The position numbers were made by a program, and so were the translations under genes. From positions 10,469,347-10,533,346 of the forward strand of contig NC_086380.1 of NCBI RefSeq assembly GCF_036588685.1: a stretch of DNA of 64,000 nt. Reading direction: 5' to 3'. Positions 2,090-51,699 of the stretch are shown here, one piece after another. This stretch comes from Mytilus trossulus (taxonomy: Eukaryota). Under the pieces are notes generated by a model. The model made no database searches and was not told where the DNA came from. It worked only from the letters and a program-made list of their open reading frames with translations. Each line of letters opens with the position of its first letter. Within the stretch, counting starts at the first letter, position 1.

Positions 2090-2285
2090 GTCTATAAGAA
2101 TACGTGCAACTTGTGTGCACAAGTTGTACAACTCGTGCGCGCAAGTTAATAACTCGTGCGCACAAGTTGTGTAACTCGTGCGCACAAGTTGTGTAACTTG
2201 TGTGCACAAGATAGTAACTTGTGCGCGCAAGTTAGTAACTTGTGCGCGCAAGTTGGTAACTTGTGCGCACAAGTTGAATTTTTTT
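2090..2285. repeat. Minisatellite of about 22 bp (aactcgtgcgcacaagttgtgt), roughly 9 units
   Basis: Direct tandem repetition is visible. It follows the conserved linker ggcagctacggcgttccata at 2032-2052. Confidence 0.85.
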
Positions 2286-2319
2286 TTGCATGGCACTCCA
2301 GGGCTTCCGTACTTTGAAA

Positions 2320-3700
2320 GTCAAATAAGGAAATAGAAACCGAACAAGGAAATAAAAATCGAATAAGGAAATAGAAACCAAATAAGGAAATCAAAACCTA
2401 AAAAGGAAATAGAAACCAAATAAGGAAATAGAAACCGATAAAGGATATAGAAACTGAATAAATAGGGAATAGAAACCAAATAAGGAAACGAAAATTGAAT
2501 CAGGAAAGAGAAACCAAATAAAGACATTAAAATAAAAATATGGAAATGAATATCGAATAAGAAAATAGAAACCGAATAAGGAAATGAAAATAGAGTAAGG
2601 AATTAGAAACCAAATAAGGAAATCGAAACCGAATAAAGAAATGAAAATCAAATAAGGAAATAAAAACCAAAAAAGGAAATGAATATCGAATAAGGAAACA
2701 AAAACCGAATAAAGAAATAAATTGAATAAGAAAATAGAAAACAGTTAGAAATGAGTGAAAAAAGATTTGTGATGAAATTTTTTTTGGAGGAAAACAAAAT
2801 TTAGAGAAAAAAACATTTTGAGGGAAAAAAAATTGAAGAAAAAGAAATTTTGTGTTTCAGTTTGGATTTAAAATAACTTTCAAAATTTCAAAATTGTATA
2901 AGGAAAAAGAAACCAAAAAAACAAAATGAAAATCGATTAAGGAAATAGAAACCGAACAAGGAAACGAAAATCGAATAAGGAAATAGAAACCGATAAGGAA
3001 ATAGAAACCCAATAAGGAAATAGAAACCCAATAAGGAAATAGAAACTGAACAAGGAAAAAGAAATGAAAATCAAATAAGGAAATAGAAACCGAATAAGAA
3101 AAAATAAACCCAATCAGGAAATAGGAAACGAAAAAGGAAATAGAAACCAAATAAGAAATGAGGAGAAAAACATTTTGGAGAAAAAAAATGTTTTGAGGAA
3201 AACGAAATTTTGTGTTTCAGGTTGGACTTAAAATATTTTTCAAAATTTGAAAATCGAATTAAGGAAAAGAAAATGAATAAGGAAATGAAAATCGAATAAG
3301 GGAATAGAAACCGAAGAAGGAAATGAAAATCGAATAAGGAAATAGAATCCGAAAAATAATGATATAGAAACCGTATAAGGGAATAGAAACCGTAAAAGGG
3401 AATAGCAACTGAATAAGGAAATGAAAATCTAATAAGGAAATAGAAACCAAATAAGGAAATAGAAACCAAATAAGGAAGTAGAAACCCAATAAGGAAATAG
3501 GAACCCAATAGGAAATAGAAACCGAATAAGGAAATGAAAATCGAATAAGGAAATAAAAAACGAAATAAGGAAACGAAAATTGAATAAGGAAATAGAAACC
3601 CAATAAGAAAAAAGAAACCCAATCAGGAAATAGGAACCGAATAAGGAAATAGAAACCGAATAAGAAAATGAAATCGAATAAGGAAATAGAAAACAATTAA
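2320..3700. repeat. Satellite DNA with roughly 19-bp units (gaataaggaaatagaaacc) and higher-order structure
   Basis: There are dozens of tandem units. Arrays are interrupted at 2720-2890, 3150-3250 and 3700-3760 by a recurring spacer (gagggaaaaaa...ttttgtgtttcagtttggatttaaaata...caaaatttcaaaat). All minus-strand FGFYFLI-type ORFs here are artefacts. Confidence 0.9.
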
Positions 3701-4489
3701 AAAATGAGGGAAAAAAGATTTGTGGTGAACATTTTTTTTTTTTGCGGAAAACAAAGGAGTAGATCCGGTAAGGGCCGATTTTGGCCTCAAATTGCAACTT
3801 CATCTAACGAAAGATTTTGGACACTTTTTAAACACTTAAGTGTCTATTACAATTGATTCAATTAGTTCATGTGAACATTTTTAACTGAATTAGTCATTAC
3901 AAACGCTCGGATTCAGGCTTTAATATGAATTTTTGTTTTAAATGCCAAAAACGTCACTTTTCAGTAGGTTTTTGTCAAAAATGAAAGTGGCCGCAACCGT
4001 GTTCATCCTAGACCTTTATTTATGTTATGTATTTTCATCAAATACAAGTTAAATTTCAATATTCTGAATGAACAAGAATGCGGCCACTTTCATTTAAGAT
4101 GGAAATCGTCTAAAATTTAACTAAAATTCAAAAATAGTGAAGATTTCAGTAATTTAGCATGAATTAATAATGCAAGTACTCGATATATGTTCATTGTATT
4201 GTCAAAATCAGCCCATATTTATGTAGCAGAAGCATTCTACTTTCCAGTAAATAGCTAAAAGATGATTACATTTTCACAATTTTGTAAAACTGTTATATTT
4301 TGGGGCCAAAAAGGGGTCTTACTGAACCTACTCGTTTTTGAGGAAAACACGATTTTGAGGGGCAAAACAATTTGAAGATAAAAAAAATTCAGGAAAACAT
4401 GTTTGAGGGACAAAAATGAGGAAAAAAGAATGTGTTTCAGTTTGGTGTCAAAATATTTTTCAAAATTAGAAAATTTTATAAGAAAAAAG

Positions 4490-4950
4490 TAACCAAATAA
4501 GGAAATAAAAATCGAATAAGGAAATAAAAACTGAACAAGAAAATGAAAATCGAATAAGGTAATAGAAACCGAAAAAGGAAATAAAAACCGAATAAAGAAA
4601 TGAAAATCGAATAAGGGAACAGAAACCGAATAAGGGAATGAAAATCGAATAAGGAAATAGAAACAGAATAAAGAAATGAAAATCGAATAAGGAAACAAAA
4701 ACCGAATAAGGAAATGAAAATCGAATAACAAATAGAAACCGAATAAGCAAAAAGAAATTGAATAAAGATATAAAAATCTATTAAGGAAATAGAAACCGAA
4801 TAAGAAAATAGATACCCAATAAGGAAATAGGAACCGAATAGGGAAAATAGAAACTGAATAAGGAAATGAAAATAGAATAAGGGAACAGAAACCGAATAAG
4901 GAAATGAAGTCGAATAAGGAAATAGAAACCAAATAAGAAATGAGGGAAAA
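4490..4950. repeat. Second block of the same 19-bp satellite, flanked by the same spacer type (4320-4480 and 4950-5100)
   Basis: Same unit as 2320-3700. The ORFs 4255..5021 are repeat artefacts. Confidence 0.9.
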
Positions 4951-5339
4951 AAAGTTGTGGTGAAAAAAAAATTTGGAGGTAAACAAAATTTTGAGGGAAA
5001 AAAATTTGGAAAAAAAAACAAGTATGCAGAAAAATAAGTTGAGGAAATTTTAAGGAGAAAAAGTTTTTTTTTATGTGTTTCGGTTTGGACTAAAATAAGT
5101 ATATCAATATATATATATCATATAACACTATCAATAAACAAAAAGATAGCACTTATAAGATGCACACAAATCAGTGTCTAGATGCTAATATAGCTGATAA
5201 TCCAATACTTTATTTGTGAATTCATATACTGCATAGAAAGTTACTTTAAAAATGTTTGTCCTCAAAAACGTTTTGTCATTTGAAATTAATTTGACTTAAA
5301 CAATCAATAGCTTAAAATTCATTCATTATTAAGATAAAA

Positions 5340-6000
5340 GTCAGAGCATTTACCATGTGAAAGGCTTAACTTACTAGATGCCTTTTCTTAACATAAGGGT
5401 TACGTTAATCATTATTAAGATAACAGTGAGAGACTTACCATTTGAAAGGTTTAAACTACGTTGGGCCTTTTGTTAACATTAGGGTTAAGTTATTCATTAT
5501 TAAGATGACAGTCAGGGTGATTACCATGTGCAGGGTTTGAACTAATTGGGGCCTTTTGTTAACAATAGGATTAAGTAATTCATTATAAATATTACAGTCA
5601 GAGTGATTACCATGTGAAAGGTTTAAACGAATTGGGGCCATTTGTTGACATTAGGGTTAAGTTATTCATTATTAAGATAAAAGTCAGATTGATTACTATT
5701 TAGAAGGTTTTAACTAATTGGGGCCTTTTGCTAACATTATGGTTAAGTTATTCATTATAAAGATAACAGTCAGAGTGGTAACCATTAATTTGAAAGGTTT
5801 TAACTACTTGGGGCCTCTTGCTAACTCTATGGTTAAGTTATTAATCATTTAGATAACAGTCAGACCGATTACCATGTGAGAGAATTAAAATACTTGGGAC
5901 GTTTTTTAACATTAGGGTTAATCTATTAAGATAATTTTCAGAGTGATTACCATTTGAAAGGTTAAACTACTTGTGGCCTTTTGTTAACATTAGGGTTAAA
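5340..6000. repeat. Satellite of about 87 bp (cattattaagataacagtcagagtgattaccatgtgaaaggtttaaactaattggggccttttgttaacattagggttaagtta), roughly 8 units
   Basis: Tandem units are visible. A single related unit lies at 21170-21240, the homologous position in the second duplicated segment. Confidence 0.85.
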
Positions 6001-6589
6001 TAAAGGCAACAGTAGTATACCGCTGTTCAAAACTCATAAATCCATGGAAAAAAACAAAATCGGGGTAACAAACCAAAACCGAGCGAAACGCATTAAATAT
6101 AAGAGGAGAACAACGACACAACACCGAAACGCAACACACACAGAAACAGACCAATCATCAGACAAAACACCACGAGAATAACAAATGTAACATGAAAACC
6201 AAATACATGAATTTGGGATAGACAAGTACCGTGCCACGTCTTATCTCAATATCTCAAAAATAAGAGAAAACACAAACGACTCAACGTTAAAATGCAACAC
6301 AAAGAGAAACGAACAATATTATAACAATGACCATCTTCCTGACTTGGTACAGGACACTTTTAAAGGGGAATAAAGGTGGTGGGTTGAACCTGGTTTTAAG
6401 GCATGCCAAACCTCGCACTTTAATGGCAAAGTTAAATATAACATTGAAATGACAACATAATACTACAGGACTACAATACAAACAAATACGAGAACATATC
6501 AGACACAGAAAAACATGATAAATAGATAACAAAAAGCATCAGGTTTAAAATTCAATACGCCAAAAACGCACCTTGTCCACACAAGACTC

Positions 6590-7070
6590 ACCAGTGACGC
6601 CCAGATATAAAAGATCGAAAGTGAAAAAAGTACATAGTTGTACAGCACTGAAGATCAAAAGTTGAAAAGGTTTCGCAAAATACGGCATTGTTTTTATGCA
6701 TGGGATAAGAACATTCTTATTATATAGAACAATTCATGCTATTGCAAACAGTAAATTTTATCAAATGAATATGAAAGAGATATACACAAAGAAACTAAAG
6801 TATTAACTAATTACAGAAAACTAAACCTGAATACATAACGCCTAGATATAAAAGATCGAACGTGAAAAAGGTACAAAGTTGTACAACACTGAAGATCAAA
6901 AGTTGAAAAGGTTTTGACAAATACGGCATTGTTTTTATGCACGGGATAAGAACATCCTTATTATATAGAATACTTAATGCTATTGCAAACAGTAAATTTT
7001 AACAAATGAATATGAAAGAGATATACATAATTAAACTGAAATATTAACTAATTACAGAAACCTAAACCCA
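6590..7070. repeat. Tandem duplication of two units of about 245 bp
   Basis: 6596-6835 and 6843-7060 are near-identical (cagatataaaagatcgaa.gtgaaaaag.taca.agttgtaca.cactgaagatcaaaagttgaaaagg...). Confidence 0.85.
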
Positions 7071-7486
7071 AGTCACAAAATAGACACACATCCGAATCAG
7101 TCCAGGCGTCATTACCATTCTTGTTTTGTGATTTCAGTGAAGATTTATTTTAAGATATAAGTACATGGAAATTTTCTATAACTTTTATAACGCGTACAAA
7201 TCCTGTTGAACCATGTATGTCAGATCTTATAAAGTTCAAAAAACAACATTTGGGCGCACTGAATTCTATATCTAGCGTTAAAAGTAGGTATTTTAGTAAC
7301 ATTAAAATTAGTTTTATTACATGAAAATATATAGATGAAGTAGTATTAACAATGATAAAACTCTACATCAAAAACCAACTGATTAGAGCTTAGCATCTAT
7401 AAGTCACCAGCTTTTCACTAAGTTAATATTCAATACACATGTATATATAAATATATGCAATAATTTCCTATCATTTTGTCATTACT

Positions 7487-9433
7487 TCAACAGAGTTGAT
7501 GCAGTCTAAATGCAGCACTTGTTTTGTTATACGGATCCTCCTGTGCAGCAATATGAAAGTATTTTCTTGCTAAATCTATTTTACCTAGCATCTGAAAAGC
7601 TATTCCCTGTAAAAGAATATTATATGTGTTCACAAACCCACGCTGCTCCAATCCTTCTTGTAATCGATCGTATTCGCGTACTGTTTCTAATAACTTGTTC
7701 ATACAATTCCAACTTGATTTAAAGTCTTGGAGATGGTAACAACACAGAAAACGGAGGAAATGTGCAAATGGTATGGAACTTATATATGCCAATAGTTCAA
7801 AGGTATGAGGAGACTTTAACTCCATCGGGATGAATGAATCTGATAATGTATTGTCAAAACAGACATATGGAGATGGTATTTTCTTAACTAGTGACATTAG
7901 CTTCAGTGTCTTTGTCTGTGTTAGTGAAATCTTGGACAATATTGCTTCATCTTCACATTTTGACAAAGTGTAATTTATTATATCTATTGATGTTAAATAA
8001 TTGTTTTGACCATAGAAGAAAGAAGCCAATTTCAGCCACCCTGATACTGCATCTGAACCTACGCCTACCAACAACTTGCTCAGGTCATGTTTGTAGAGTT
8101 TGTAATGCTGTTTATTGTTTGGGTTATTTACATGTGGTGGTGCAAAAGGCATTAGTCGATATGTTATTATGATTGACAGTTGAAAGATACATCTGGATAA
8201 TTCACTTTTACAATGATGCAACAAGGTATACAAATTATAAAAGTATGGTAGATATTTTAGTGAAAATACTGGTCTGTTCTTAATCATTACTTTAATTAAT
8301 GTAGTTATTTCGCACACCGATCTTGTAGTTTCACATGGAAATCGTCTGTAATTCTGTAAAGTTTGAGAAGACGAGAAAATCTGAATTCCATTTTGGTATG
8401 ATTTCTTAAGGACGTTGATAAATGAGTTCCTTTGTTTATTGTTAAATCTTAAATAGAACAAGTTGTTATTAGGAATGAAATAATGTAACAACGTTGAATA
8501 TTCTACACAATATAATAACCTTTTTAAACAGGCCATAAAACAGGGAATAATATTGTCGGGTCTCCAGACTGATGTGTCATTTTCTTCTAACATCCAAAAC
8601 ATCAGGGTCTTCAAAAAGTATGAACACAATAAATCTTTTAATTCTTTCTTTCCATTTACTATTTCTTTCAATAATGTCTTTAACAAAGCATAGCATAGTA
8701 ACTGGGTATGACTGAAAGAATAAATCAGTATCTTCTCTGCAACAGAAAATGATATCCGCCACTGAAGATGTTCATTTATAGATCCCTTGTTGCCAATTGG
8801 AACAAATAAAATACCGCATGAAGTTATTTTGGAGATAAGTTCAGATGAAGGCCATATTGAACGTGATCTTGAGATCCATGGTTTGGCTTGAGATACCCAC
8901 TTATCACATTTTAGGCAGTACGCTAAATCCAACGATTCATCACAAATTGATAAACATGGACCGTGAATTTGTGGTTTGTACTCTGGGAATGAATCTTTGT
9001 TTTTTGTTAGTTGTGATTTATAAAGCTCACTTGAAAGTAGGGTTTTACCTCTGTGTTGTCGTAGGTTTTGTTTGATACAATTTAATTCTTTATCAACATT
9101 GGTATAACTTTGTAGTAGTGTAAAACACGGTGGTGTGTCCTCAGTATCCATTACAAACACTTTCCTCCTATCATGGACAACATCTTTATTTGATTCGTAT
9201 ATTACATATAAAGGATGAATTATCATTATATCAATATCACTACCTTTAAGATCTAGTCCTTCTCCCTTGCTTCCACTGGTTATGTTAGGAATAAGTTTGC
9301 TGGATCTTGTTGCGTCATCAGTTATAGATGTCAATCGTCTAGCTCTTACTATTGTCTCTGATCCAATTTTCTGACACAAGTATTCATAAAAATGTAAGCA
9401 TTCTGCTTTACTGTGAGACATATTCTTTAACAT
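7487..9433 (-). CDS. Mab-21 domain / cGAS-like nucleotidyltransferase (cGLR-like) with a C-terminal extension containing a TPR-like motif; single uninterrupted 648-aa ORF
   Basis: The translation contains ITSGSKGEGLDLKGSDIDIMI (the GS...[DE]h[DE]h nucleotidyltransferase motif) and VFVMDTEDTPPCFTLL. SLDLAYCL aligns with the cGAS third-Asp segment SVDITLAL. WRISFSVAEKILI matches cGAS WRLSFSHIEKEIL. LHYFIPNNNLFYLRFNNKQRN matches cGAS NYFIPEFNLFSSNLIDKRSK. The C-terminal 300 aa include a TPR-like stretch NTYNILLQGIAFQMLGKIDLARKYFHIAAQEDP. The paralogue starts at MSHSK, so the conserved start is probably Met5 at 9421. Confidence 0.8.
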   Translation of the reverse strand: MLKNMSHSKAECLHFYEYLCQKIGSETIVRARRLTSITDDATRSSKLIPNITSGSKGEGLDLKGSDIDIMIIHPLYVIYESNKDVVHDRRKVFVMDTEDTPPCFTLLQSYTNVDKELNCIKQNLRQHRGKTLLSSELYKSQLTKNKDSFPEYKPQIHGPCLSICDESLDLAYCLKCDKWVSQAKPWISRSRSIWPSSELISKITSCGILFVPIGNKGSINEHLQWRISFSVAEKILIYSFSHTQLLCYALLKTLLKEIVNGKKELKDLLCSYFLKTLMFWMLEENDTSVWRPDNIIPCFMACLKRLLYCVEYSTLLHYFIPNNNLFYLRFNNKQRNSFINVLKKSYQNGIQIFSSSQTLQNYRRFPCETTRSVCEITTLIKVMIKNRPVFSLKYLPYFYNLYTLLHHCKSELSRCIFQLSIIITYRLMPFAPPHVNNPNNKQHYKLYKHDLSKLLVGVGSDAVSGWLKLASFFYGQNNYLTSIDIINYTLSKCEDEAILSKISLTQTKTLKLMSLVKKIPSPYVCFDNTLSDSFIPMELKSPHTFELLAYISSIPFAHFLRFLCCYHLQDFKSSWNCMNKLLETVREYDRLQEGLEQRGFVNTYNILLQGIAFQMLGKIDLARKYFHIAAQEDPYNKTSAAFRLHQLC

Positions 9434-12400
9434 TGTGAGGATTTTGTTTTACAGTGAGACATAATCTTTTAATTTTCCGGGATTCTAAATAGTATAATGA
9501 TGTTGTATAACTATCCAGATATTTTTTCCGTTTTCTTTGTAAAGTTTTTCCTAATGGTATGGTATAATTGTTTTTATATTCTCTCTAGCTTGTAATGGTT
9601 TATAGATGTTCCTGTCAATTGGTCCAATATAAGCTCTACTTTCTTTTTTTTTTACTGCAGTGTAATGATTTCTGGTTCGGATACTGTATAATACTCTAGA
9701 CATTTGTTTATACGTGTAATGGTAAGTGTTGATTTTCTTAGGACGTTCCTTAAAAATAAACCAAATATTGTCTAAGATGGTTATGCCAAATCTTTAGCTG
9801 ACAATATTCTTCTTCGCACTTACCTGATGAAGTCTTAACTCTTTAAATATATTTTTTTCATATATTTCCGATGTAACTGGTACACCTTGTTTTTAACACC
9901 CTTCCCCTTTTTACCCCTTTTGAGGTTGTTTTTTTTTATTCAGCTCTTTTTGATTTAATCATCAACATATCAACTTGATCTGGTTGAATATTTGATTAAA
10001 GTGTTTACCGATATTAACTGAAATAACTTATAATTATAAATTATAACTAGCCTATATATATTTCGACAACTTTTCCTTGTTCCATATTTGATAATTTATT
10101 TTTTTAATATACTGTTTTTCTTAGAATTCTATTTTAAGAATTATTCGCAATGAGGAAGTTTTTGTAAGAAACGTAGCAGGTATAGGGGGAGGGTTGAGAT
10201 CTTACAATAATATTTAAATCCGCCACATTTTAGACTCTGTTCTTCGTAAGCCTTGTATGATTTTATAATTCTAGTTCACTTATATGTTTTTGAGTTCAGT
10301 ATGTCATCCATTTGTATTAAGAAGCCACCTAAGGGTACAAGAAGGTCTCACTGTGTTGAAAGACATAATTGTGGCCTTCGGCTGTTATCTACTGTTTGGT
10401 CGGGTTGTTTCCTCTTTGACCTTCCCCATTGGCATTCTAAATTTTGTTTCCCATACTTTGGCATTAAATATAAATGATATTTTCCCTACAGAAGCATGAA
10501 CTAGGAAATGTTTCCCTTAACTGAAACAAGTTGATAATATAGTTTCAGTTTCACATCTTACATTTATTTAATTATTAAAAATATTTTAAATAGGAAATAT
10601 TTATGTAGTATTATAAATTAATTTATACATTATTTATTTTATTACCCCCATTGGAAATAAGTTTGTGTTTGACTGCACGGGTAAAAGATATGCATAAAGT
10701 CACAACCATTGCAAACTATACATGCTATATATTAAGTTTGTATTTACATATGTTTCTGAATCGTGCAAATAGTATGTATACATTGGCATTAGATTAGAAT
10801 AAGGTTTAAAAGTTTACACTCCTTAACATCTTATGGATACTAGTGGTTCTACGTATGCATTGAATAATTGCTACTGGACATTCAACAAACAATCAAAAAT
10901 ACTAATGTAAGAATTGCAGATTCCTTGATAATATATGTACTTTCAAATTAAAAAAAAATCACTTACAGCTAGTATGCATGAAACAATACTTCATATAAAA
11001 ATTTGTTAAATTGATTAACCTTTTAGAAGGTTTCAAAAATCAAACAGTAACAATTTAGGCATATGAGATGAACACAAGATCCTAAGCTATCTAAAGCACT
11101 GAATAGGTTCCCCTTTCATAAAATTTTGAAATAACCTTTAGAGCGTTTAATACGCTCCCCTTTCTTGGACATGGAATATAATTTCTTTCTGTCCCAATTT
11201 ATTACGCAAGACTGTATGATGTTTCTAGCGGCCACTGATGCAAACTTTTGTTGAAGTTTGTGATTAGGTCAGTATAAAGGGAACCACTAATGGTAATTCA
11301 AATATATTTAAAATGCACTTATATAAACAATGGCACATCTGATTTCCATGTAGATTATTGGGTCCGGTCCTCTCATTCATGATCTATTGAGTTTGGAACT
11401 TTTTTCATAATTTACATGTTAAGTTGATGAAGTATCGGTCTTTTGACTAGGAAAATTTTGCATAGTTTATACGTAAAAGTTGGTAATAAGGTCTGTTTAA
11501 GGGGAACCACTTATGATAAGTAAATGATACCACTTCTTGGTATGCAGTTCTAATAGCATTGGCATATGTTATATTTCAGTAATTGTTGCAATTTGTTAAG
11601 ATCGGTAAAATTCATATAATTTGTACAATTTTATTGCAGAAATGTGTAACTGTATAGCCTTTCTTCTAGATTAAACCTGTTGATTATAAACATGAAAACT
11701 TATCTATGGAATAGCTGCATTATTTAAAAGAAGAAATGATGCTGCCTTTTGTAATTTTATTAGTTAGTAAGAACATTGCCCGAAGCACATTCTGCATGAA
11801 ACACTGAAGCATTTCACACTTGACATATATACACAGGCAACCCTTACACAACCCTATTAAATTTTAAAAGAGCCATTTATTCCTTATGATTACATCTTTA
11901 TGTTATAGCCATGTAATTACCAGTCAGGCCTTTCAATAGTTTTAACATGTGGGGTTATAGATGTTGCATTTTCCAGAGAATTCATTATTGTTCATAGGAT
12001 ACCATTTTTTTGTTGTCTTTGTAAATACAGGAGAAAACCTTTAATTTAAATGTTCAACAAATGACAAATTGTTAATAAAACATGTATGCAAAGTTTGGCA
12101 AAACCACGAAATTATATATATATATATATCTTTTTCTAAAAATGAGGGTACTCTTTATATGGCCTTCCAAATACCGTTTCGATCCCTAACATCACTGAAG
12201 AGACATTTATTGTCGAAATCCGGATCTGGTGTACTAAAAAAATATTGACACCGTATGTTTGTGGCAAAACACCGTGGCCACAAGTTAATTTTTTTTTAAG
12301 AAATAATTCATGGGGGCTTGAATATATCGTGATTTTACCACGGGTTGGCCCTTTATGACAAATATTTTATCCTGAGCGATAGCGAGATTCAAGCCCCCAT

Positions 12401-12479: not shown

Positions 12480-14530
12480 TTCCCAGAAATAAAGGTTACA
12501 CGCCATTATTCCGACAGCCCATTAGTCCGTCAGCCCATTGGTCCGACAACCCAATATTCCGACAACTCATTGCTCTGACAATCCATTGATCCGACAGCCC
12601 AATACTCCAACAACCCATAAGTCCGACACTTATCATGTCAAGTATCAGGGTCAAATAAAATTTGTCTGTCTGTATTATTACTTTTAAATATGTAATAACA
12701 TATAACTCCGTATATATAATGCTGAGTTCATTCGTAATTCGAATTCGATTCGCATAAAATAATTCGAATTAGTCCTAACGTCAATTCTAATTCGAATTAC
12801 AATGAGCGTCAAATTCGCTTAACTGTCCAAACGGCATTAACTTTAATTCGTATTAGCAAAAGCATATTTCTAATCCGAATTAGATAATTGGAATTGGCCA
12901 ATTCTAATCAATTCGAATTAGAAAAGAAGAGTGTGTGAACGCTTTTCGATTCGAATTAAATGTACGTGTGAACGAGGCATAAAATAAGGCCTATGTAGTT
13001 CGAATACTTTCTTTATACTTAATTCGAAATCTGTATATAGAATTGAACAGAAAAGAATATTTCATATTCCAAATTAAAGGGTCTATAAAGAGCATATAAA
13101 TCAAGAACAACGAGTGATAGTGCGAGCTACTGATGATTCCCCCGCTCACAAATTTCGTTGTAGAGTTATGAATCTGAAAAAGTATCGCACAGTATAGCTC
13201 ACATGTATAAACATTGAACCAAATTTCAGAAATCATTGTATTGTAGTTCCTGAGAACAATGTGACGAACATTTTTAACTTGGCTGTCATGTGAAAAGTGT
13301 TCGGTAAACAGGAAGTTGTTGACAATGAATCTGAAAACTCATCACACGATATAGCCGACTTCAACAAACCTTTCAGAAATCCTTGTATTTTAGTTCATAA
13401 AAAAAAATGCAACGAAAATATTCATGGAATTGACGGATGAACTGACTGACTGACTGACGGATGGACGGTTGGACGGACGGACAGACAGAGGCAAAACAGT
13501 TTTCGAAGCGGCGGTATAATGATTGGGTTAACATTAAGACTTTACAATACTAGTATAATAATATAATTATCTTTATAGCCCCATACGCCTCAGTGAGAAT
13601 CGGAGCCAAAATAAAATAAAAAAACTCAACTAACACATTGATATGAAATAACAGTGCTTATCAAGACATGCACTACATAATTCAAAAGAACTAGCAATAT
13701 AATCATCAGTTCCCCTCTTAATAGTAAAATTTTCTTGTGTTATCAATATTTAACTTTTTAAAGTTCTGACATGTGCTAGATATATGCTAAAAGAGTTCCT
13801 CCCTCAAATTATTATTAAGTGAGCATTCGATTGAAAAATGACGCTCATCCTCAACTTTATCCGTTGTACAATACGATTTTTTGAGTATATGACATTTTCA
13901 ATTCTTAACGTAATGGGTGAGCACCGATTTTTAATTAACATATGAAGTACCTTTCTTAAAATCAATGATATCTTCATATTTTTCTTCTTGATCACAATCT
14001 TTAAATGAAAAATAAGTGTCAAGTTTGCCATAAAAAAACATAATGTACTAAGTTTTTACAATTAGACAATGTATATACAGTCTCTGACCCCGCCGATATC
14101 ACTTTTCCTCATGACTATTTTTAAAGTAGAAGTTGCCGAAATGTTCTTGTCCGTCATATTTGTCGTAATACGACCGCAAAACTTTTTTTTAGGGATCGTA
14201 TAATGGTATGATGTCGCCGTCTGTGTCGCCTGCGTCAAGGGTAAGGACTGAGCAGTTAAAACAAGTATGTGTTTCAACTCCAATATATGAGACAAATATC
14301 CCGCATGGAAAGAATGATTGGAAAAAAAACGGACAACCCCAAATATAAAAGAGAAAAGATCTAGAGTTGGTCTTTTTAGAGAAAATTTTCCCAAAAACAC
14401 AAGACAGATGCATTGTCGGAATAATGGGCTGTCGGAGTAATGGGCTGTCGGAATAGTGTGCTGTCGGAGTAATGGGCTGTCGGAATAATGGGCTGTCGGA
14501 ATAATGGTTGTCGGACTAATGGGATGTCAC
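12480..14530. mobile_element. Nested element with long terminal inverted repeats built from tandem 17-18-bp units (cattggtccgacagccc-like)
   Basis: 12490-12620 is the reverse complement of 14400-14530 (ggactaatgggctgtcggaataatgg...). The interior holds a cluster of palindromic aattcgaatt motifs (12700-13030, at least 10 occurrences) and a tandem 130-bp duplication (13150-13420). It interrupts the foldback arm. Confidence 0.55.
13437..13500. repeat. Microsatellite (GACT/GACG/GACA)n
   Basis: gacggatgaactgactgactgactgacggatggacggttggacggacggacagacag. Confidence 0.8.
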
Positions 14531-16089
14531 CGAAATGAACACACTATTAAATTGGCGTAAAAGAACGGAGCAAACTGAATTAGTGACATGCTTAAACTAT
14601 TTAAAATAACGTATATAGATAGTTTTGAATTAATTTAAATGATAATTTACTTATATGTCTTAAATGTTTAAACAAATATGGCTTATAACACATTTTAGCA
14701 TTGTTTGTTTACGTTTCCATAATGTGATGATTTTCGGTAATACAAGCGTGTATTTTCCCATAAAATGCTCATATTCTAACGTCATCGTTTTATGACGTCG
14801 CAAACTCATTCATAAAAAAAGCATATGACGTGGGAGTACGATCGGAACAGCCCATGCAATATATTCAAATTTTACCACGGGTGTGTACTCAAAGCGTTTG
14901 AAGGACGTCATGTTAGAATTAGTATTACATTTATATTAAAATTCATTTTGTTACATGTTGTGATCAATTTTATTTGGCAATCGCCAATGGCAGGCAGCAG
15001 GGTTAAAGAACATCAGTTGTTCGACCTGTTAGTCAGATGCGTTTTGTTTAAATATACTTTTGCTCTTTTTTGGTCTTTTGGAAAATGTTTTTTGTACTGA
15101 TTTTAATACCCTTCTACAACCAAATTTGTTTTACATGCACACGTTAAAAAAAATCGGTTTTTATCCAACGCATTTATAGGTTTGAACGTTGTTTTCAATT
15201 TAGACTCGTTTATATATAAATACTTTACGGAAAAGATTTACTGTTCACCGTCAACAAATCCGAAATAAAGAAATTAGGATGATTAACGTAAGTGAACACC
15301 GGGATTTATGCGCTAGCAACACAGCACCCAAATACTTTGTTTTCCCATTTTTCCAATGTTACGACAAATTCACTGAAGAAATGAGAATTAATATGGAACT
15401 TATATGCTTATACAAAAGTACAAACCCAGCCTAAACAGATAAGATGTTACTTTTGTAAGGGTTACCGACTTTCTATCGTGATGTTACGTTACCGTTAGTT
15501 ACATTCATCCATGATTATCACAACGATGTGAAACCGGAATTAACCCTCTTGCTGCCGGAGGGACACATATGTCCATGGTTAAATTTATGCAAGCTTCTCA
15601 TCAATGCTGTATCTCTTCCCATAAAAATATCGAAGATAAAACAGTGTTATGTTTTTGTCCAATGGGTCCCAAATGTAACGGTCATTATGTCGTGACGTCA
15701 TATATCGAATGACGTCGTTGTTTGGCATGTTACGTCACAGACATTGAGCTGTCGTATTTTCCGGCATATGAAATGCAACCTTGAAAACGGTCGGCAGCAA
15801 GAGTTTGTCAATTAAAACAGAAAGAGACGTAGAAATATCTGAATTTTTGGTATTTTGGTATTTGCGCAAGTGTAAATTAATTTGTTCCCCGGACTAATGC
15901 TATACCGAACAGAAACTTAAAAATTTACGACACTACAGTGACAAAAGTCAATAATTTCCGTCAGTTCTACCACTGTCTACAGGTTTAAAGAAAGTAAGAC
16001 AACATTAAAAGGTGAAGGAAAATACAAACACTATGACATCTTGTGTTTTAGAAATTGAAATCTAAGTTAAGTTAAGTTATTTAATATTA

Positions 16090-16599: not shown

Positions 16600-17300
16600 C
16601 ATCATTGAGTTTATAGTGGAAAGTTATCTTAATGGAGAGATGTCTTCTTCGCAATCATACCACATCATTTGGTCTCTGGTGAGAGTTGTTTCATTTGTAA
16701 TTATAACATATCTATATCATTTGGTCCCTTGTGAGAGTTCGCGTATTGATAATTATACTACATCTATATCATTTGGTCCTTGGGGGAGAATTTTCTCATC
16801 GGTGAATCTACCTCAGCTCTATGATTTGCTCTCTGGTGGAGATATGTCGCATTTGCAATCATACTACATCATCTATCTACATGATTTAGTCTCTATGGAG
16901 ATATGTATCTTTGGAAATCAAACCACATCTCCATCATTTTGTCTCTAATGGAGAGTTGTATCTCTGACAATCATACCACATCGCCATCATTTGGTCTCTG
17001 ATGGAGAGTTGTCTCATTGGCAGTCATACCACATCGCCATCATTTGGTCTCTGATGGAGAGCTGTCTCATTTGCAATCATACCACATCTCCATCATTTGG
17101 TCTCTGATGAAGAGTTGTTTCGTTGACAATCATACTATATCATCTATCTAAATGATTTAGCCTCTGTTGGTGATTTGTGTCGTTTGCAATCAAACCACAA
17201 CTTCATCATTTGGTCTCTGGTATGGAGTTGTCTCATTAGCAATTATACCAGATTTGCACCCTTTGGTCTCTGGTGGAGATTTGTTTCAATGGCCATCATA
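16600..17300. repeat. Minisatellite with units of about 42-60 bp (catcatttggtctctgatggagagttgtctcattggcaatcataccacatc)
   Basis: Tandem units are visible. It is followed by a roughly 600-bp unique tail (17300-17900) that recurs at 18130-18700 and 28130-28560. The same composite recurs at 26480-28560. Confidence 0.85.
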
Positions 17301-20300: not shown

Positions 20301-21555
20301 ACAAATAGATATATATTAACTAGTACATTGTGAAAGAAGGATTTATGATATAAGGTCATTTTTTTGGCCTCTTTAAATCGAAAATCAAGAAGTATTAAAA
20401 CTCTACCAAAAATGATTCACTTCAACACTTGTTAAAATTCTAGTCTGTCAAACATCAGTATTAATATTTAAATTTTTGTCAAACACATTTATATTTGTGC
20501 TTCAACTTGAGTTGACAAAATTGCAAAGATAGCCTCATTTCGAAATCATTTCGATATAATATTTGTATTAACCATGCTTTACCCAAACATTTATTTTGCT
20601 ACTAGGTGTATTTGACAAAGATGTTAATGTTTGTCAATATGTTTCTTGGTAAGAATTTGGCTCATATTCATTTTCTCCAAAATTTGTGTGCAAAATGGTC
20701 CTTTTATGTTAATTTCAATATGTTACTGACACTACAGTAACATCACATCTGCCCTGTCTTCTCTAAAGACTCATGATTATACATGTTATAGGAGCATGTT
20801 CATTGATCAATATAATTAACAGAATTTTTCAAGGCATTTATAATTTCTATTTTTAGAATTTCAGCTCTTATCATACATGTCATACTTTCTCCTCTTTAAA
20901 TGTGATTTCATGTAAATAACCAGTATATGTTAAATGGTCAATTTACAAAACAGTCTATACATTTCATATCAACTTGTATCAATTTTTCTGACACAGATGC
21001 TATTTTTACAATTAATGTCTTTTCCGTACAAATGTCTCTACAGTACAAATGATGTTTGAGGCATATATATTTGATAATCTAATACTTAATTGTTGAATGC
21101 ATACCACATAGAAAATTATTGTAAAAAAGCTTGTCCTCAAAAAATTATTTAAAAATTAATTTCTTTTGGACAATCAATGGCTTAAGTAATTTATAATTAA
21201 GATTGCAGTCAGCGTGATTACCATGTAAGAGGTTAAGACTCATTAAAGCATATTGTCAACAACAGTGTTGTCTTCTGCGATTTCAAGGAAGAGTTAGATT
21301 TCATTTTAAAATTACACAAGGAATTTACTTAAACAAAAGCTTGTATGACCATTTCGATCAGCTCTTATAGCTGACGAAAAGTTATAAAGAAATGGGCTGC
21401 ATTCAATGATATTTCTATTGTAAACAATGACTGTGTGTTTGTCATAACTAATGACATTAGTCGATTTGATGCAGTCTGAATGCAGCACTTGTTAAATTAT
21501 ACTCGTCAATCTGTACACCAATACGAAAATACTTTCTTGCTAAATATCTCTCAAC

Positions 21556-23379
21556 TTACATCTGATAAGCTGTTCCCAATAAAACAAAATGATATGCCTT
21601 TATATCTATATATCTAGCTTCTCCTGATTGAATGTAATCATTAACTGTTTCTGAAATTCTGTCTATACAATAACGACTTGATTTAAAGTCCTGTAGATGG
21701 TAACAACACAGAAAACGGAGGAAATGTGCAAATGGTAAGGGACTTATAAATACCGCAGTACCAAAGTCATGAGGAGACTTTAGTTCCATTGGGATGACTG
21801 AAACAAATATTATCCTGTTAAATGACACATATGTTGCTGGTAGTAGTGATATCAGCTTCAGTGTCTTTGTCTGTTTCATTGTAATTTTTGACAAAGAAAC
21901 TTCATCTGTACATTTTGACAAAGTGTAATTGATTATAAACATTGATGTTACATAATGTTTGTGACAATAGAAAAATGAAGCCAATTTCAGCCACCCTGAT
22001 CTTGAATCTGACTTTACACCAACCAACAACTGGCTGAGGTCATGTTTGTAGAATTTATGTTGCTGTTTATTGTTTGGGTTATTGATTTGTGGTAGCGTAA
22101 AAGGTATTGTTTGATATTCACTTGCAAAAGACAGTTGAAAGATACATCTGGATAATTCAGTTTTACAATGATGCAGCAAAGTGTTCAATAAGCCAAAGAT
22201 GTTTGAAATAGTTAAGTGTTTGAACATTGTCATTGCTTTCATTGATGTAGTTATTTCCCACATTGATCTTGCAGTTTCACATGGAAATCTTCTGTAATCA
22301 TGTAAAGTCTGAGATGATGAGAAAGCCTGAATTCCTTTTTGATATGATTGTTCTAGGAAATTGATTAATGCGTCCCGTTGTTTATTGTTAAACCTTAAAT
22401 AGAACAAGTTGTTATCAGGAATGAAATAATGTAACAATGTTGAATAATTACTCTATACAGTATAGTAACCTTTGTAAACAGGCCATAAAACAGGGAATGA
22501 TATTATCTGGTCTCCAGACTGATGTTTCATTTTCTTCTGACATCCAAAACATAAGGGTCTTCAAAAAGTATGAACACAATAAATCTTTTAAGTCTTCCCT
22601 TCCATGTAATATTTCTTTCAATAATATCTTCAAAGCATAGCATAGAAGCTGGGTATGACTGAAAGAATATATCAGTATATTCTCTGCAACAGAAAAAGAT
22701 ATTCGCCGCTGAAGATTCTCGTGTATAGATCCCTTGTTGCCAATTGGAACAAATAGAGTACCGCATGCAGTTATTTTTGAAATAAGTTCCGGTGAAGGCC
22801 ATATTAAACGTGGTCTTGATATCCATGGTTGTGCCTGCCATACCCACTGATCACATTTAAGGCAGATTGCAAAATCAATATAGTATCATCAATGTCCGAT
22901 AAGCATGGACCATGAAAATGCGTATTCCCTTTTGTCTTTGGAGATATTTCTTGCATTTTGTTTAATTTATGTGACTTGTAAAGCTCACTTGAAAGTAGGG
23001 TTTTCCCTCTGTGTTGTTGTAGCTGTTGTTTGAAGTGATTGTCTAAGTAATTAACATTGGTATATAATTGTAGTTGTGTAAAACACGGTGGTGTGTCCTC
23101 AGTATCCATTACTATAGCTATCCTTCTATCCTGGACAACATCTGTATCTGATATATATACTACATATGCAGGATCAATACACATAATATCAATATCACTA
23201 CCTTCAAGATCCAGTCCTTCTGCCTTACTTCCACTGCTTATATGAGGAATACTATTGCTCGACATTGTAAAATCTCTACTTATAGATGTCAATCGTCTAG
23301 CTCTTACAACTTTCTCTGATCCAATTTTCTGACACAAATGTTCATAAAACTGTAAGGATTCTGTTTTACTGTGAGACAT
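21556..23379 (-). pseudogene. Frameshifted paralogue of the cGLR-like gene (about 70% amino-acid identity in the N-terminal half), truncated at the C-terminus
   Basis: The N-terminal ORF 22804..23379 (MSHSKTESLQFYEHLCQKIGSEKVVRARRLTS...SGSKAEGLDLEGSDIDIMCI...) aligns with the intact gene and then diverges. The remaining homology is split over ORFs 22527..22847 (off frame), 22448..22633 and 21556..22437. A 4-nt insertion near 22447 turns CVEYSTLLHYFIP into CIE*. The stop falls about 30 codons early. Confidence 0.8.
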
Positions 23380-26300
23380 AGTCTTTAACTCTGTAGGGAT
23401 TCTAAATACTAGTAGTACAATGATGTTGCAATACCATCCAGAAATTTTTTCTCTTTTTCTTTGTGATGGTTTTTGGTTGATAATCCAGCTTCATTGTCTA
23501 GATTGTCTATTATCCTTGTAATGGTTTCTGGGTGGTACTGTATAATTGTCTAGATATTATCTCTAGCCTTGTACTGGTTTCTAGATGTTCCTGTCAAATT
23601 GGCCTATTCGTCCAATTTTTTATCTATTCTTTTACTGTTTTCTATATGGTACTGTATAGTTGTCTAGTTTGTCTATTGTCCTTGTAATGGTTTCTGGATG
23701 GTACTGTATAATTGCCAAGATATTCTCACTATCTGTGTGTTACTTTATAGATTTTTCTTGTTCAATATTTGCTCTTCTTTTCTTTTCTTCTACTGGTTAA
23801 TCTAAATGTTATGTAGTATTGTCTAGTTTGTCTTTAACTTTTGACAGGGTTTCTGGTTTCTGATACTGTATGATAGTTTATATATTTGTTTTAATGATTA
23901 GTGTTGGTTTTCTTATGACGTTCCTTTAAAATAAACAAAAGATTATCTGTTTAACATATTGTCTGAGATGAAAGTTGTGTAGTCAAAGTTTCAGCTGTCA
24001 ATTTCCCGTTTAAGACTTATCTAGCGAAGAGGTATGTGTCTGTCCCAAGTCAGGAGCCTGTTATTCAGTGGTTGTCGTTTGTTTATGTGTCACATATTTT
24101 GTTTTTTATTATTTTGTTATATAAATAAGGCCGTTTGTTTTCTCGTTTGAATTGTTTTACATCGTCATTTCGGGGCCTTTTATAGCTGACTATGCGGTAT
24201 GGGCTATGCTCATTGTTGAAGGCCGTACGGTGACCTATAGTTGTTAATTTCTGTTTCATTTTTGTCTCTCGTGGAGAGTTGTCTCATTGGCAATCATATT
24301 ACATCTTCTTTTTATATTATATCTTTTGATATATATTTTTATATATTTCTGATGTAACTGGCACATCTTCTTTTAATTATAAGATACATATCTATATTTC
24401 AACAACTTTTCCTTGTTGTATGTTTGATAAATTTCAGAGGGGGATCCAGATATTCTAAATAGAGGGGGCCACTGACTGTATAAGAGGGGCCCGTTTCAGT
24501 CATTCTTCTCTGATTCCCTATTTAATCAACATGTTCGCCACAAAAGGGGGAACCCGGGTCCCCTGTCCTCTATAAATCTGCCTCTGAATTTAGTATTTAA
24601 TGTACTGCTTTTCATAAAATTATATTTTAGAATGATTGGCAATGAGGATGTTTTTATAAGAAACTTTAACTTAGCCCGCATTTTCCAAACTTTGTTAATA
24701 AACAACTTAATGATATTTCCTCTTACAGAAGCTTCAACTAGGAAATATTTCTCTTTACTGAAACAAGAGGATATGATAAGTTCAGTTTCACATCTTCAAT
24801 GTAATCATTTTAAATGTGAAATATTTATATCAAATGATATTGATCAGGAAATATTGTATGATAAATGGAATGATACATTATTTATTTTATTATCCAGGCT
24901 ATAAGAACCCCATTGAAAATTGTTTTTTTATAGCTTCCGGGGGTTATCCTTTTGTTGAGGCATTATATGCATTGAGTCCGTGGCAACCATTGCACACAAT
25001 ATACATTCAGGTTGTATTCAACTAGGTTTCTGAATCTTTAAATTGTATGATTGTATAATGTATACGTTAGTATTAGATTAGATTTTATTTAAAGGTTTAC
25101 ACACCTTACATCTTATGTTTAACCTTTGAATACTAGTGGTTTTGCATATGCATTAAATAATTGCTAATGGGTTTTCAACAATCAATTAAAAGTACTGATA
25201 TAAGAATAGCAGATTCCTTGATATTATATGCAATTTCAAATTAAAAATTTCACACGACAGCAATTATGAATAAAACTAATATTTAATATCAAAATTTGTT
25301 AGATTTAGCCTTTTCTAAGGTTTCCAAAATCAAAAAGTTAAAGTTTCGGTATATGGAAGGAACACGACACACTGAGCTGTTTGAAGGTTCCCCTTTCTTA
25401 AAACTTGAAAGAATTTTTACAGCATCCAACAGTCTACCCTTTCTGAAAACAAAGTGGAGAACTTTCTGGAGCATTGGATAGAATCCTTTTCTGTCACCAA
25501 GTAAAACTTGCCGTATGGTGTTTCCTGTGCCTATTACTTCAACATGTCGTTAAGGTTTGTAATTAGGCCAGTTCAAAGAGAAACAAAATGGTCATTCAAT
25601 ATGCATTTGTATAAGCATTGACACATCTGATTTCCATGTAGATTATTTGGTCATATGCCCTTATTTATGATCTATTGACTTTGAAACCTTTGCATAGTTT
25701 ACATGTAAAGTTGTAGATTTAGGTCAGTTAAAGGGGAACTACTTATAATAAGTCAATAATACTTGGTATGCAGTTTTAATGGCATTAGTAAATGTTATAT
25801 CGCAAACAAAAATGTTGGCCCAGTTCCTTCAGTCATGGTTCATAGACTTAAAAGTACTAATATTTTTCATAATTAACATGTTAATGTTTTACCGTTTTAA
25901 ATTTCACCATCTAAATTTTACTATCAAATTACAAACTGACAAGACATATCTCTGTGTCCACAGTTTAATTTAAAGCATGTATAAAATGACTGATCTTTAT
26001 TTTCTGCATCAGTTATAATAAGCAAAATAAACCAAGTATTTTGTGCAAAAAGGCTTAGCAATATAATTAAAAATTCTCCCGAAGCACTTGACGTGTTGGC
26101 CAAGTCTTGTTGTAATTTGTTAAGAATTGTAAAAATCAAATCGTTTAGGCAACTTTAATGCAGAAATGTGTAATTATAAAGCCTTTCTACTAGGTAACAG
26201 TGTTTGCAAATGTTGTATTGGGCTAGTGGTTATAAACATGATGCATGATCCATGGAATTTCTGCATTTTTTATTTAAAAAATAGAATGCTGCTTTTTGTA

Positions 26301-26577
26301 ATTATTGTAGTGTAAGAGCATTTCCAAAAGCACATTCGGTATGAAGAACAGACGACCTTCGTAATTTAGATTCATTGATTGGAAACCCTTTTACAACCAT
26401 GTTAGATTTCAAAAGAAGCATTTATTTCTTATTATTGGCTTTTCATGTACAAATTTGATATGTTATGTAATTATAACGAAAAAAACTATCAACATCATTT
26501 AGACTCTGGTGGAGAGACTTGTCTCATTGGCATTCAATCATTTCATACCATATACCACATGTATATCATTTGGTCTT

Positions 26578-26832: not shown

Positions 26833-26879
26833 AAGTGAAAAGTTGTTTCATAGGCAATAATATCACATACTACATTTAC

Positions 26880-28120: not shown

Positions 28121-28699
28121 TCTTATTTTCATACACATAAATATTATGGCAACCCTAAATTTACTTGCTTTCCTTACTCCTAACATATTTTAACTGATAC
28201 TTTACTTACTTTCTAATTAAACAGCAATGGTTTACTGTTTTTGTCTTAGAACAGTAACTACTGTATCTTTTCAACACTCACTGAAAATGAATCTTATAAG
28301 ATAAAATCATTCTTTATGTAGGCAAACAAAATCAGCTTCCCAAGATAATGTTAGATTGATGAAAAGATAATTAAAAAAAAAACTTAAATTAAATTTAATT
28401 ACCTATTTCCTTCAAAATTTTCTTGTGTAACTTTCATTCATTATGATACTTTCATGTCACAAAGCACTGAATTATATAAACAACTAATATTTTTCTGCAT
28501 AGAAAGAGAATTATATTAAGTATATGCCACAAATGATTTATATGTATATTTGGACTCTGAAGAAAGTTTTGGTAACACTTTTGGTTTCAAGAGACTTAAT
28601 ATCAGAGCATATTAATAGTCTTAATTTGTTCACTCATTGTTTTTGTCGAGCCTTTGTCTTTTGTCGAAACAGCGAGACATAGTGATCCTACATTTCTTC

Positions 28700-51432: not shown

Positions 51433-51699
51433 GTAAGTATTTAAGTTGCTAGGGACAACAAGTGCAGTAACTCTGCAAGAACAAAAACATCACAACCAGT
51501 TTTGTGGTTGTGTATCAGTAAAGTACAAATTACTAAGTAAAATATAAATACAAGGGTTATCAAAATGGAAACAGCACTTAAAATAATCTCTTGCAATTGG
51601 ATTTCTTATCAGGAGATCACTACAAAATCATAGACTACTCTGCACATACATGATTCTATATCTACTTGTTTTGTTATGACATTTAATGTAGTTCAATTA

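Follow-up and report, generated by a model that had tools for sequence, protein, structure and literature searches.

A single-exon cGAS-like nucleotidyltransferase with a basic TPR-like tail, a member of a large Mytilus gene family

The closest described relatives of the gene reported here are the cGAS-like receptors (cGLRs) that carry a repeat module. In the survey of Li et al. 2023 (PMC9980059), 87% of cGLRs were stand-alone proteins, and some were fused to tetratricopeptide repeats (TPRs) or ankyrin repeats. The same survey counted 218 cGLR genes and 9 STING genes in M. galloprovincialis and 119 and 8, respectively, in M. coruscus, and no Mytilus protein was among its 140 biochemically screened enzymes (Table S3, PMC9980059). 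We analyzed a stretch of 64,000 nucleotides from Mytilus trossulus (contig NC_086380.1, positions 10,469,347 to 10,533,346 of the forward strand; hereafter, the window), in which a gene on the minus strand encodes the uncharacterized protein LOC134681645. The best explanation of its features is that it is an intact member of a very large Mytilidae family of single-exon cGLR/Mab-21 genes, in which a basic TPR-like tail of about 300 residues is permanently attached to the nucleotidyltransferase core, and that its product probably acts as a sensor enzyme. Our literature search found no paper on this TPR-tailed Mytilus family. Mab-21 and cGAS are not mentioned in the Mytilus pan-genome papers (PMC7653742, PMC10514466), and other mussel papers mention Mab-21 only in generic annotation lists.

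The gene and its nucleotidyltransferase core

The original prediction, made from the sequence of the window, proposed an intronless gene for a protein of 648 amino acids (aa) at 7487–9433. The open reading frame (ORF) was confirmed, and its strand is minus (Table 1). It starts with ATG, is uninterrupted, and is preceded by an in-frame stop five codons upstream of the start. The window is AT-rich (about 32% GC) and contains few long ORFs, as expected for animal DNA. Based on its base composition, the probability of 648 sense codons in a row is 3.7e-23, and the ORF is therefore not a chance feature. The translation is identical, at 100% over the full length, to the RefSeq entry "uncharacterized protein LOC134681645 [Mytilus trossulus]" (648 aa). 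Since the translation of the uninterrupted ORF equals the RefSeq protein residue for residue, the annotated coding sequence (CDS) is a single exon, as had been proposed; this status covers the CDS and leaves room for introns in the untranslated regions. Two in-frame Met codons, M1 and M5, are located at 9419–9433 (minus strand). The N-termini of the paralogues, as well as that of a decayed copy in the window, align to M5 (MSHSK...), and the true start may therefore lie four codons downstream of the RefSeq start, which, judging from this alignment, may be placed too early by that length. All the motifs quoted in the original prediction (GSKGEGLDLKGSDIDIM, SLDLAY, WRISFS, YFIPNNNLF, TYNILLQGIAFQMLGKIDLARKYFHIAAQEDPYN, and FAHFLRFLCCYH) were found in the protein, and their coordinates were verified by translation.

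The assignment to the Mab-21/cGAS-like nucleotidyltransferases was supported by profile searches, matches to solved structures, and structure prediction. Both Pfam families scored above their gathering cut-offs. Mab-21_C (PF20266) matched aa 247–342 with an E-value of 3.4e-17 (62.9 bits versus a cut-off of 24.1), and Mab-21 (PF03281) matched with an E-value of 1.4e-7 (32.2 bits versus 24.1), the latter match spanning only profile positions 107–196 (aa 145–238), that is, the C-terminal half of the model. The top match in a phmmer search of the PDB was coral Sp-cGLR1 (8gjy; 1e-13), followed by mouse and human cGAS (3e-12 to 1e-6), MAB21L1 (5eom; 1e-4), and MID51 (0.04). When the family profile was compared with the PDB, the E-value for Sp-cGLR1 was 3.6e-18. 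Alignment by hhalign with mouse cGAS gave a probability of 98% over aa 208–353.

A full-length AlphaFold2 model, built on an alignment of 85 paralogues, had a predicted local distance difference test score (pLDDT) of 87.7 and a predicted template modelling score (pTM) of 0.86. The top 50 Foldseek matches of this model were all cGAS, cGLR, or MAB21L1 structures, with template modelling (TM) scores normalised by target of 0.63–0.71 over 320–398 columns and E-values of 1e-11 to 3e-10. The first approximately 385 residues of the model superposed on the complete catalytic domains of cGAS, Sp-cGLR1, Cv-cGLR1, and MAB21L1, with a TM score of about 0.7. The C-lobe of the core is the most conserved part of the family, with an entropy minimum at aa 200–326. 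The Zn-thumb of vertebrate cGAS (H-X5-CC-X6-C) was not found in the hhalign alignment, which has a 12-column gap opposite the mouse cGAS segment ...KTCCESSGAKCCRKEC, and the long basic disordered N-terminus is absent from the model, where the spine helix begins at aa 9. By these two features, LOC134681645 does not qualify as a vertebrate-type cGAS orthologue.

Conservation of the catalytic residues was assessed in 85 full-length paralogues that are 35–70% identical to the query. G54, E58, G59, S65, D66, D68, M70, and D169 were invariant in all 85 sequences, and S55 was kept in 84 of them. In the model, the G-S pair is placed at a strand-helix junction (strand 50–53, helix 54–57), the D-x-D motif on the next strand (67–72), and D169 on strand 168–176, a predicted layout that is the arrangement of pol-beta nucleotidyltransferases. 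D169 was aligned with the "SVDLTL" column of Sp-cGLR1 (8gjy), and the Pfam family NTP_transf_2 gave a weak match at aa 53–76 (E = 0.057). Judging from conservation and the model, the catalytic set consisting of G-S, D-x-D, and the third Asp is intact in LOC134681645. The earlier proposal of intact catalytic motifs, including the third Asp, was thus upheld, the acidic triad being retained on the alignment of the 85 paralogues.

The C-terminal tail and the Mytilus family

The tail is nearly all helical in the models, apart from a small beta-hairpin. Its whole length is alignable across the family, and it is therefore a family feature and not an oddity of LOC134681645. Comparison with the TPR size pattern (a 34-residue helix-turn-helix with W4-L7-G8-Y11-A20-F24-A27-P32) revealed only two clear TPR-like units, at aa 463–496 and 603–636, both of which are helix pairs in the model; outside these units, the tail is irregular. 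Conservation within the tail peaks at the first helix of the former unit (stretch 458–473), where G465, L469, A470, and Y474 are conserved in at least 90% of the paralogues. The unit equivalent to aa 603–636 reaches Pfam TPR_1/TPR_2 in some paralogues, and clearer matches to TPR_1, TPR_2, TPR_8, and TPR_12 were seen in some paralogues and in a second subfamily described below; these matches were either precomputed or scanned, and those scanned here fell just under the cut-off. Some paralogues are named "tetratricopeptide (TPR) repeat protein" by JGI. The label "TPR-like solenoid" is reasonable for the tail, divergent and interrupted as it is. The region of aa 340–460 was predicted with more confidence in the full-length model than in a tail-only model, which hints at packing of the tail on the core; the alignment depth differs between the two models (85 versus 22 sequences), and we do not count this as evidence.

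The stretch that had been described as Cys/His-rich turned out to lie within a conserved and confidently modelled solenoid helix (aa 553–567). The conserved positions of this helix, F559, L560, F562, L563 (invariant), C564, Y566, and H567, are mostly hydrophobic, and this conservation, taken with the model, fits a packing helix. No zinc-finger or metal-binding Pfam family matched aa 553–567 in the Pfam scan. A Zn-binding reading of "FLCCYH" was rejected, as the segment is a confident helix and, apart from the mostly hydrophobic positions, only C564 and H567 are conserved.

A search with the full-length protein retrieved 743 proteins at E <= 1e-3. In the best 120 of these 743, the named organisms were all Mytilus (trossulus, edulis, galloprovincialis, californianus, and coruscus), and most of the proteins were 620–700 aa long. 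Several matches carry the annotation "cyclic GMP-AMP synthase-like receptor 2". An exhaustive search of 1.84 billion cluster representatives with a profile built from the tail alone retrieved 766 proteins, of which 455 had E <= 1e-10. Every named hit that was looked up belonged to Mytilus, and the N-terminus of the hits, where present and recognisable, was always Mab-21. A divergent relative from ENA/JGI assemblies, P0113, possibly from another mytilid, led to a second large subfamily with Mab-21 and TPR regions. The architecture is of a known kind because hundreds of Mytilus proteins share it and TPR-fused cGLRs are listed by Li et al. (PMC9980059). The tail lacks a counterpart in cGAS and appears TPR-like at the fold level, as originally proposed, but it has counterparts in hundreds of annotated Mytilus paralogues, and neither the word "novel" nor the notion of a new sensor-effector architecture can be retained. 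LOC134681645 is an ordinary, already annotated member of a large immune-type gene family.

The nearest non-self match was approximately 70% identical, even in sister species, and no relative at 90% identity or higher was found in a collection of 15 billion proteins, in which LOC134681645 forms a cluster of one. This low nearest identity fits a gene with fast turnover or one that is variable in presence and absence, as far as sequence comparison can indicate. Other domain combinations were also observed in the family. P0368 of M. edulis (824 aa) is a cGLR-TIR fusion with Mab-21 and TIR domains (PF01582, PF13676), and P0178 of M. trossulus (790 aa) carries the TPR tail together with a C2H2 zinc-finger-like match at its N-terminus.

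A basic surface is usually taken as a mark of nucleic-acid-binding cGLRs. Among the paralogues, the core has a median isoelectric point (pI) of 7.48, with 38% of the cores above 8, and the tail has a median pI of 9.04, with 92% of the tails above 8. The basic charge of the family thus sits on the tail, not on the core. The segments that are hypervariable in the family are aa 115–125 (a loop of the N-lobe) and aa 370–397 and 589–599 in the tail, and the conserved ones are aa 56–66 (the P-loop), 200–326 (the C-lobe), and 458–473 (one TPR helix). The predicted pI of every cGLR is shown by Li et al. (legend of Fig. S2, PMC9980059).

To place the core among animal cGLRs, the family hidden Markov model (HMM) was scored against the sequences in Table S3 of Li et al. 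The highest-ranking sequences belonged to the group of nos. 10/15/17 of that table, namely Stylophora PFX14071 (E = 1.6e-39), Lingula XP_013399423 (1.8e-34), and Nematostella XP_001641744 (1.9e-31). Mouse cGAS (4.8e-19), Cv-cGLR2 (4.3e-14), human MB21D2 (1.4e-9), and Stylophora PFX14001 (no. 6; 7e-9) followed. From this ranking, the core is assigned to a pan-metazoan cGLR clade, and the family and the closest cores have in common the signature IHGP...WP..W..R.R..WP..L.

Among the matches listed, LOC123556514 of Mercenaria mercenaria (P0406, 488 aa) was the closest tail-less relative and the best one from a non-mytilid bivalve. It matched positions 41–408 of the family profile at 6e-48 and then ends, without a tail. 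Its N-lobe matched PF22600 (MTPAP-like central palm; 3.9e-6), just above the cut-off, a hint that a sequence signature like that of poly(A) polymerases (PAPs) and terminal uridylyltransferases (TUTases) may persist in the N-lobe of this cGLR clade. In Lingula anatina, four tandem cGLR paralogues (P0401–P0404; 645–665 aa) are located on one 1.89-Mb contig, and XP_013399423 of Lingula was in the screen of Li et al. (PMC9980059). No homology was detectable between the Lingula tails (about 265 residues) and that of Mytilus (E = 0.39 with hhalign and > 0.2 with hmmsearch), so the Lingula tail was rejected as a homologue, and the Lingula tails matched no Pfam family, TPR families included. From these comparisons, the Lingula tail seems to have been added to the same cGLR clade independently. 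Among the matches listed, the TPR-like tail looks like a mytilid-specific addition made in the mussel lineage.

Tandem duplication and other features of the window

A decayed paralogue lies approximately 14 kb from the intact gene on the same strand (Table 1). The two copies have 78% nucleotide identity and 62–82% amino acid identity. The decayed copy carries two frameshifts, one in the region of the third Asp near aa 168 and the other near aa 311 of the query, as well as an in-frame stop within the terminal TPR unit. No protein 100% identical to the decayed copy was found in the fetched protein sets. The blastn blocks shared by the two copies span the CDS, run on for approximately 2.3 kb upstream of it, and include some of the 3' flank; they correspond to direct repeats D9–D11, D15, D16, and D20. 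Two AATAAA sites, at 7313–7318 and 7144–7149, lie downstream of the ORF. No poly(A) tract follows the intact gene, and no transposase or reverse-transcriptase domains were found in the ORFs of at least 150 aa in the window. The flanking homology and the absence of these two kinds of trace therefore point to segmental tandem duplication and not to retroposition, and an origin as a transposon or retrogene was rejected on the same grounds. Duplication followed by decay of one copy is birth-and-death evolution. The ratio of nonsynonymous to synonymous substitution rates (dN/dS) between the copies was 0.53 overall; by region, it reached 0.68 for the N-lobe and 0.59 for the tail, as against 0.25 for the C-lobe. 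As the decayed copy is a pseudogene, these values are overestimates.

Table 1. Positions of the features of LOC134681645 and its tandem paralogue in the window
Feature	Position	Strand	Evidence or remark
Complete single-exon CDS, 648 aa plus stop	7487..9433	minus	Identical to M. trossulus LOC134681645
Mab-21/cGAS-like nucleotidyltransferase core, aa 1–345, both lobes	8399..9433	minus	Pfam PF03281 and PF20266, PDB sequence and profile matches, AlphaFold, Foldseek
Putative nucleotide/metal-binding motif G54-S55 ... S65-D66-I-D68-I-M70 (GSKGEGLDLKGSDIDIM), aa 54–70	9224..9274	minus	Family conservation, model topology
Predicted third catalytic Asp, D169, in SLDLAY, aa 167–172, strand 168–176	8918..8935	minus	Conservation, Sp-cGLR1 column
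WRISFS, aa 225–230	8744–8761	minus	Translation
Mab-21_C HhH/H2TH-like helical lobe, aa 247–342, including YFIPNNNLF	8408..8695	minus	Pfam 3.4e-17; hhalign to cGAS
YFIPNNNLF, aa 318–326	8456–8482	minus	Translation
Tail, aa 346–648 plus stop: basic TPR-like alpha-solenoid broken by a small beta-hairpin (aa 523–527, 548–552)	7487..8398	minus	
TPR-like unit, aa 463–496 (VSGWLKLASFFYGQNNYLTSIDIINYTLSKCEDE)	7946..8047	minus	6 of 8 TPR consensus positions; helices 462–475, 479–495
Conserved helix SIPFAHFLRFLCCYH, aa 553–567, containing FAHFLRFLCCYH	7733..7777	minus	Model pLDDT 95–98
Terminal TPR-like unit, aa 603–636 (TYNILLQGIAFQMLGKIDLARKYFHIAAQEDPYN), quoted in the original prediction	7526..7627	minus	7 of 8 TPR consensus positions
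Decayed tandem paralogue	21463..23388	minus	tblastn in three frames, three-frame translation
Duplicated segment with the intact gene	5166..11891		Partner 21045–26436, offset about 13.95 kb

Several repeats are located near the two copies. Tandem arrays of an approximately 53-bp unit flank the decayed paralogue at 16664–17364 and 26867–28178, about 10.2 kb apart, and a related 40-nt piece is found in inverted orientation at 1844–1883; these arrays may be satellite DNA or the remnant of a mobile element. The 3' flank of the intact gene contains a 231-nt tandem duplication with 91% identity (6597–7068). Dense 19-bp tandem repeats occupy 2278–4955 and give rise to spurious ORFs at 3071–3622 and 4255–5021, an approximately 86-bp tandem array is present at 5264–5999, and inverted arrays of a 16-nt unit lie 1.8 kb apart at 12498–12596 and 14398–14553.

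No STING gene was found among the ORFs of at least 150 aa in the window. A single ORF of 458 aa on the plus strand (44721–46097) encodes an N-terminal BTB/POZ domain (PF00651; 4e-7, above the cut-off), and no Pfam family was matched by the remainder; this ORF, too, has the look of an intronless gene. At 51676–52283, ORFs of 180–200 aa overlap on both strands, with no family matches other than sub-threshold ones of the repeat type (Fibrinogen_BP, 38.6 bits versus a cut-off of 50), and this segment is most likely a translated simple repeat and not a gene.

Proposed function and comparison with known systems

On the reading that we prefer, LOC134681645 would be a cytosolic sensor nucleotidyltransferase in which binding of a ligand switches on the active site of the Mab-21 core. 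The active site would then make a second messenger of nucleotide type, for which a cyclic dinucleotide is the likeliest candidate and which could be read by one of the several STING proteins of Mytilus. The TPR tail might provide recognition of a ligand or partner, regulate the core, or both. Such a role is suggested because the tail is basic compared with the near-neutral core and because the variable segments lie in the N-lobe and the tail.

Several observations weigh against this reading. No enzymatic, ligand, or expression evidence for LOC134681645 or any family member was found in the literature. The three closest cores in Table S3 of Li et al., PFX14071, XP_013399423, and XP_001641744, carry no "active enzyme" label there, and the clade is therefore one with neither product nor ligand demonstrated. 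The N-lobe (aa 1–160) does not align to cGAS or cGLRs by sequence, as the family profile comparison with the PDB and the hhalign alignment start only at about aa 163 or 208. For this reason, the assignment of the N-lobe is at the fold level only, and the equivalence of the G-S and D-x-D motifs rests on fold and topology. For the tail, the best Pfam match, TPR_2, stayed below its gathering score (12.7 bits versus 27; E = 0.15), Foldseek with the tail gave no significant match (best E 0.023, with a low-probability match to IFIT5), and the pLDDT of the tail-only model was a moderate 68.5. In the PDB, the tail profile matched TPR chains weakly, with a designed TPR as its top match (E = 0.005). The TPR-like helix pair of the original prediction is thus backed by seven of eight consensus positions but not by significant Pfam or Foldseek scores. 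Finally, none of the 85 family members literally matched the pattern that Li et al. gave for cGLRs with a putative active site, h[QT]GS-X8-20-[DE]h[DE]h-X50-90-h[DE]h (PMC9980059). The residue preceding G-S is Ser in 80 of 85 paralogues (S-G-S, not [QT]-G-S), and the spacer between DIDI and LDL is 98 residues in LOC134681645. When the [QT] requirement was dropped and the spacer was extended to 120, 63 of 85 members matched. The pattern is the operational filter of one study, and failing it is neither failure of a mechanistic requirement nor loss of the active site.

Three other explanations were considered. The protein may be a Mab-21 scaffold without catalytic activity, comparable to MAB21L1 or MID51, in which the fold and the tail serve protein-protein interactions and no nucleotide signal is made. 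MAB21L1 (5eom) and MID51 are indeed among the fold and sequence matches, and the unmatched active-site pattern and the missing active labels of the nearest screened relatives agree with this explanation, as does the title of a 2026 paper, which refers to shrimp Mab21 proteins outside the canonical nucleic-acid sensing paradigm (PMC12928593). We nevertheless regard it as unlikely. Across paralogues that share only 35–70% identity with the query, G54, D66, D68, and D169 never change and S55 differs in a single sequence, a pattern difficult to account for unless the active site is under selection; the P-loop stretch of aa 56–66 is among the five most conserved stretches of the family; and Mab21L1/2/3 themselves have no predicted functional active site according to Li et al. 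(PMC9980059).

A second possibility is an active nucleotidyltransferase that is not a cyclic-dinucleotide synthase, such as an enzyme resembling oligoadenylate synthase (OAS), PAP, or TUTase that makes linear oligonucleotides or that tails or modifies an RNA which the basic TPR tail would hold. In its motif GS-x3-G-x5-SD-x-D-x-M, the protein is similar to the generic P-loop of pol-beta, PAP, and OAS. The weak NTP_transf_2 match, the PF22600 match of the Mercenaria relative, and the basic tail of 92% of the paralogues point in the same direction. However, no OAS, PAP, or TUTase chain appeared among the PDB sequence hits (E <= 1) or the top 50 fold hits, and the C-lobe is clearly Mab-21_C, with the WR[IL]SFS and YFIP motifs of the cGAS family; we therefore give this explanation a small chance only. 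The gene might instead be an unexpressed or recently dying duplicate of a birth-and-death family that looks intact but is as non-functional as the copy located 14 kb from it. That tandem sister has already acquired frameshifts, dN/dS is high (0.6–0.7) in the N-lobe and the tail, and the lack of a relative with at least 90% identity, the best non-self match being at about 70%, would agree with a gene that is specific to the lineage or varies in presence and absence. This seems very unlikely, as an ORF of 648 codons in DNA of 32% GC cannot stay open by chance (3.7e-23), all the family-invariant residues are kept, and the dN/dS of the C-lobe is 0.25 despite the pseudogene partner. 

A more far-reaching proposal, which we consider rather improbable but worth stating, is that a mytilid cGLR core gained a lineage-specific basic TPR-like solenoid and that this tail, and not the near-neutral nucleotidyltransferase core, became the pattern-recognition surface, with the hundreds of paralogues forming a diversified repertoire that feeds the expanded STING set of Mytilus. 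The targets could be, for example, pathogen RNA ends, as for IFITs, or pathogen proteins, as for bacterial TPR-STAND sensors, and the hypervariable tail segments of aa 370–397 and 589–599 would represent diversified recognition. If so, recognition would be coupled to cyclic-nucleotide signalling in a modular manner, unlike the groove binding of cGAS-type proteins.

By itself, LOC134681645 is one more predicted cGLR in a genus already known to carry hundreds. What is new here is that the tail looks mytilid-specific, that the basic charge is on the tail and not on the core, and that a frameshifted tandem paralogue lies 14 kb away. The interest is at the level of the family, whose catalytic residues are invariant through a very large radiation on a pan-metazoan clade with no shown ligand or product. 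The family offers a testable proposal, namely that appended repeat modules could diversify the ligand recognition of cGLRs. If the family is inactive, it would instead be a case, on a large scale, of Mab-21 scaffolds recruited to non-enzymatic functions.

Compared with known systems, the tail has no sequence homology to the IFIT RNA binders, the Rap/PlcR peptide receptors, or the STAND/Avs TPR sensors, and no OAS, PAP, or TUTase matched the protein better than Mab-21 in the PDB sequence hits (E <= 1) or the top 50 fold hits. The non-enzymatic proteins MAB21L1/2 and MID49/51 have the same fold as LOC134681645, with weaker matches and no TPR tail, and their active sites are incomplete, whereas the triad is intact and invariant in the LOC134681645 family. 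Mercenaria LOC123556514 has a similar core without the tail, and the Lingula cGLRs have tails of similar length that are unrelated in sequence. The whole catalytic domain superposes on Sp-cGLR1 (8gjy), Cv-cGLR1 (8gjw), and mouse and human cGAS with TM scores of 0.65–0.71 normalised by target, and these proteins can also be aligned with LOC134681645 at the WR-SFS and YFIP motifs and the third-Asp column, although the identity is just 17–22% and the N-lobe is unalignable by sequence; LOC134681645 differs from them in lacking the Zn-thumb and the disordered basic N-terminus and in its extra tail of approximately 300 residues. The closest system is the class of TPR-fused cGLRs (Li et al. 2023, Fig. 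1C/S2A). LOC134681645 differs from this class in that the literal active-site pattern is not matched and in that the tail of its subfamily is so divergent that the Pfam TPR models mostly miss it. It shares with this class the bilobal Mab-21/cGAS fold, the G-S, D-x-D, and third Asp residues, a C-terminal module that looks TPR-like, and a massive radiation of bivalve genes.

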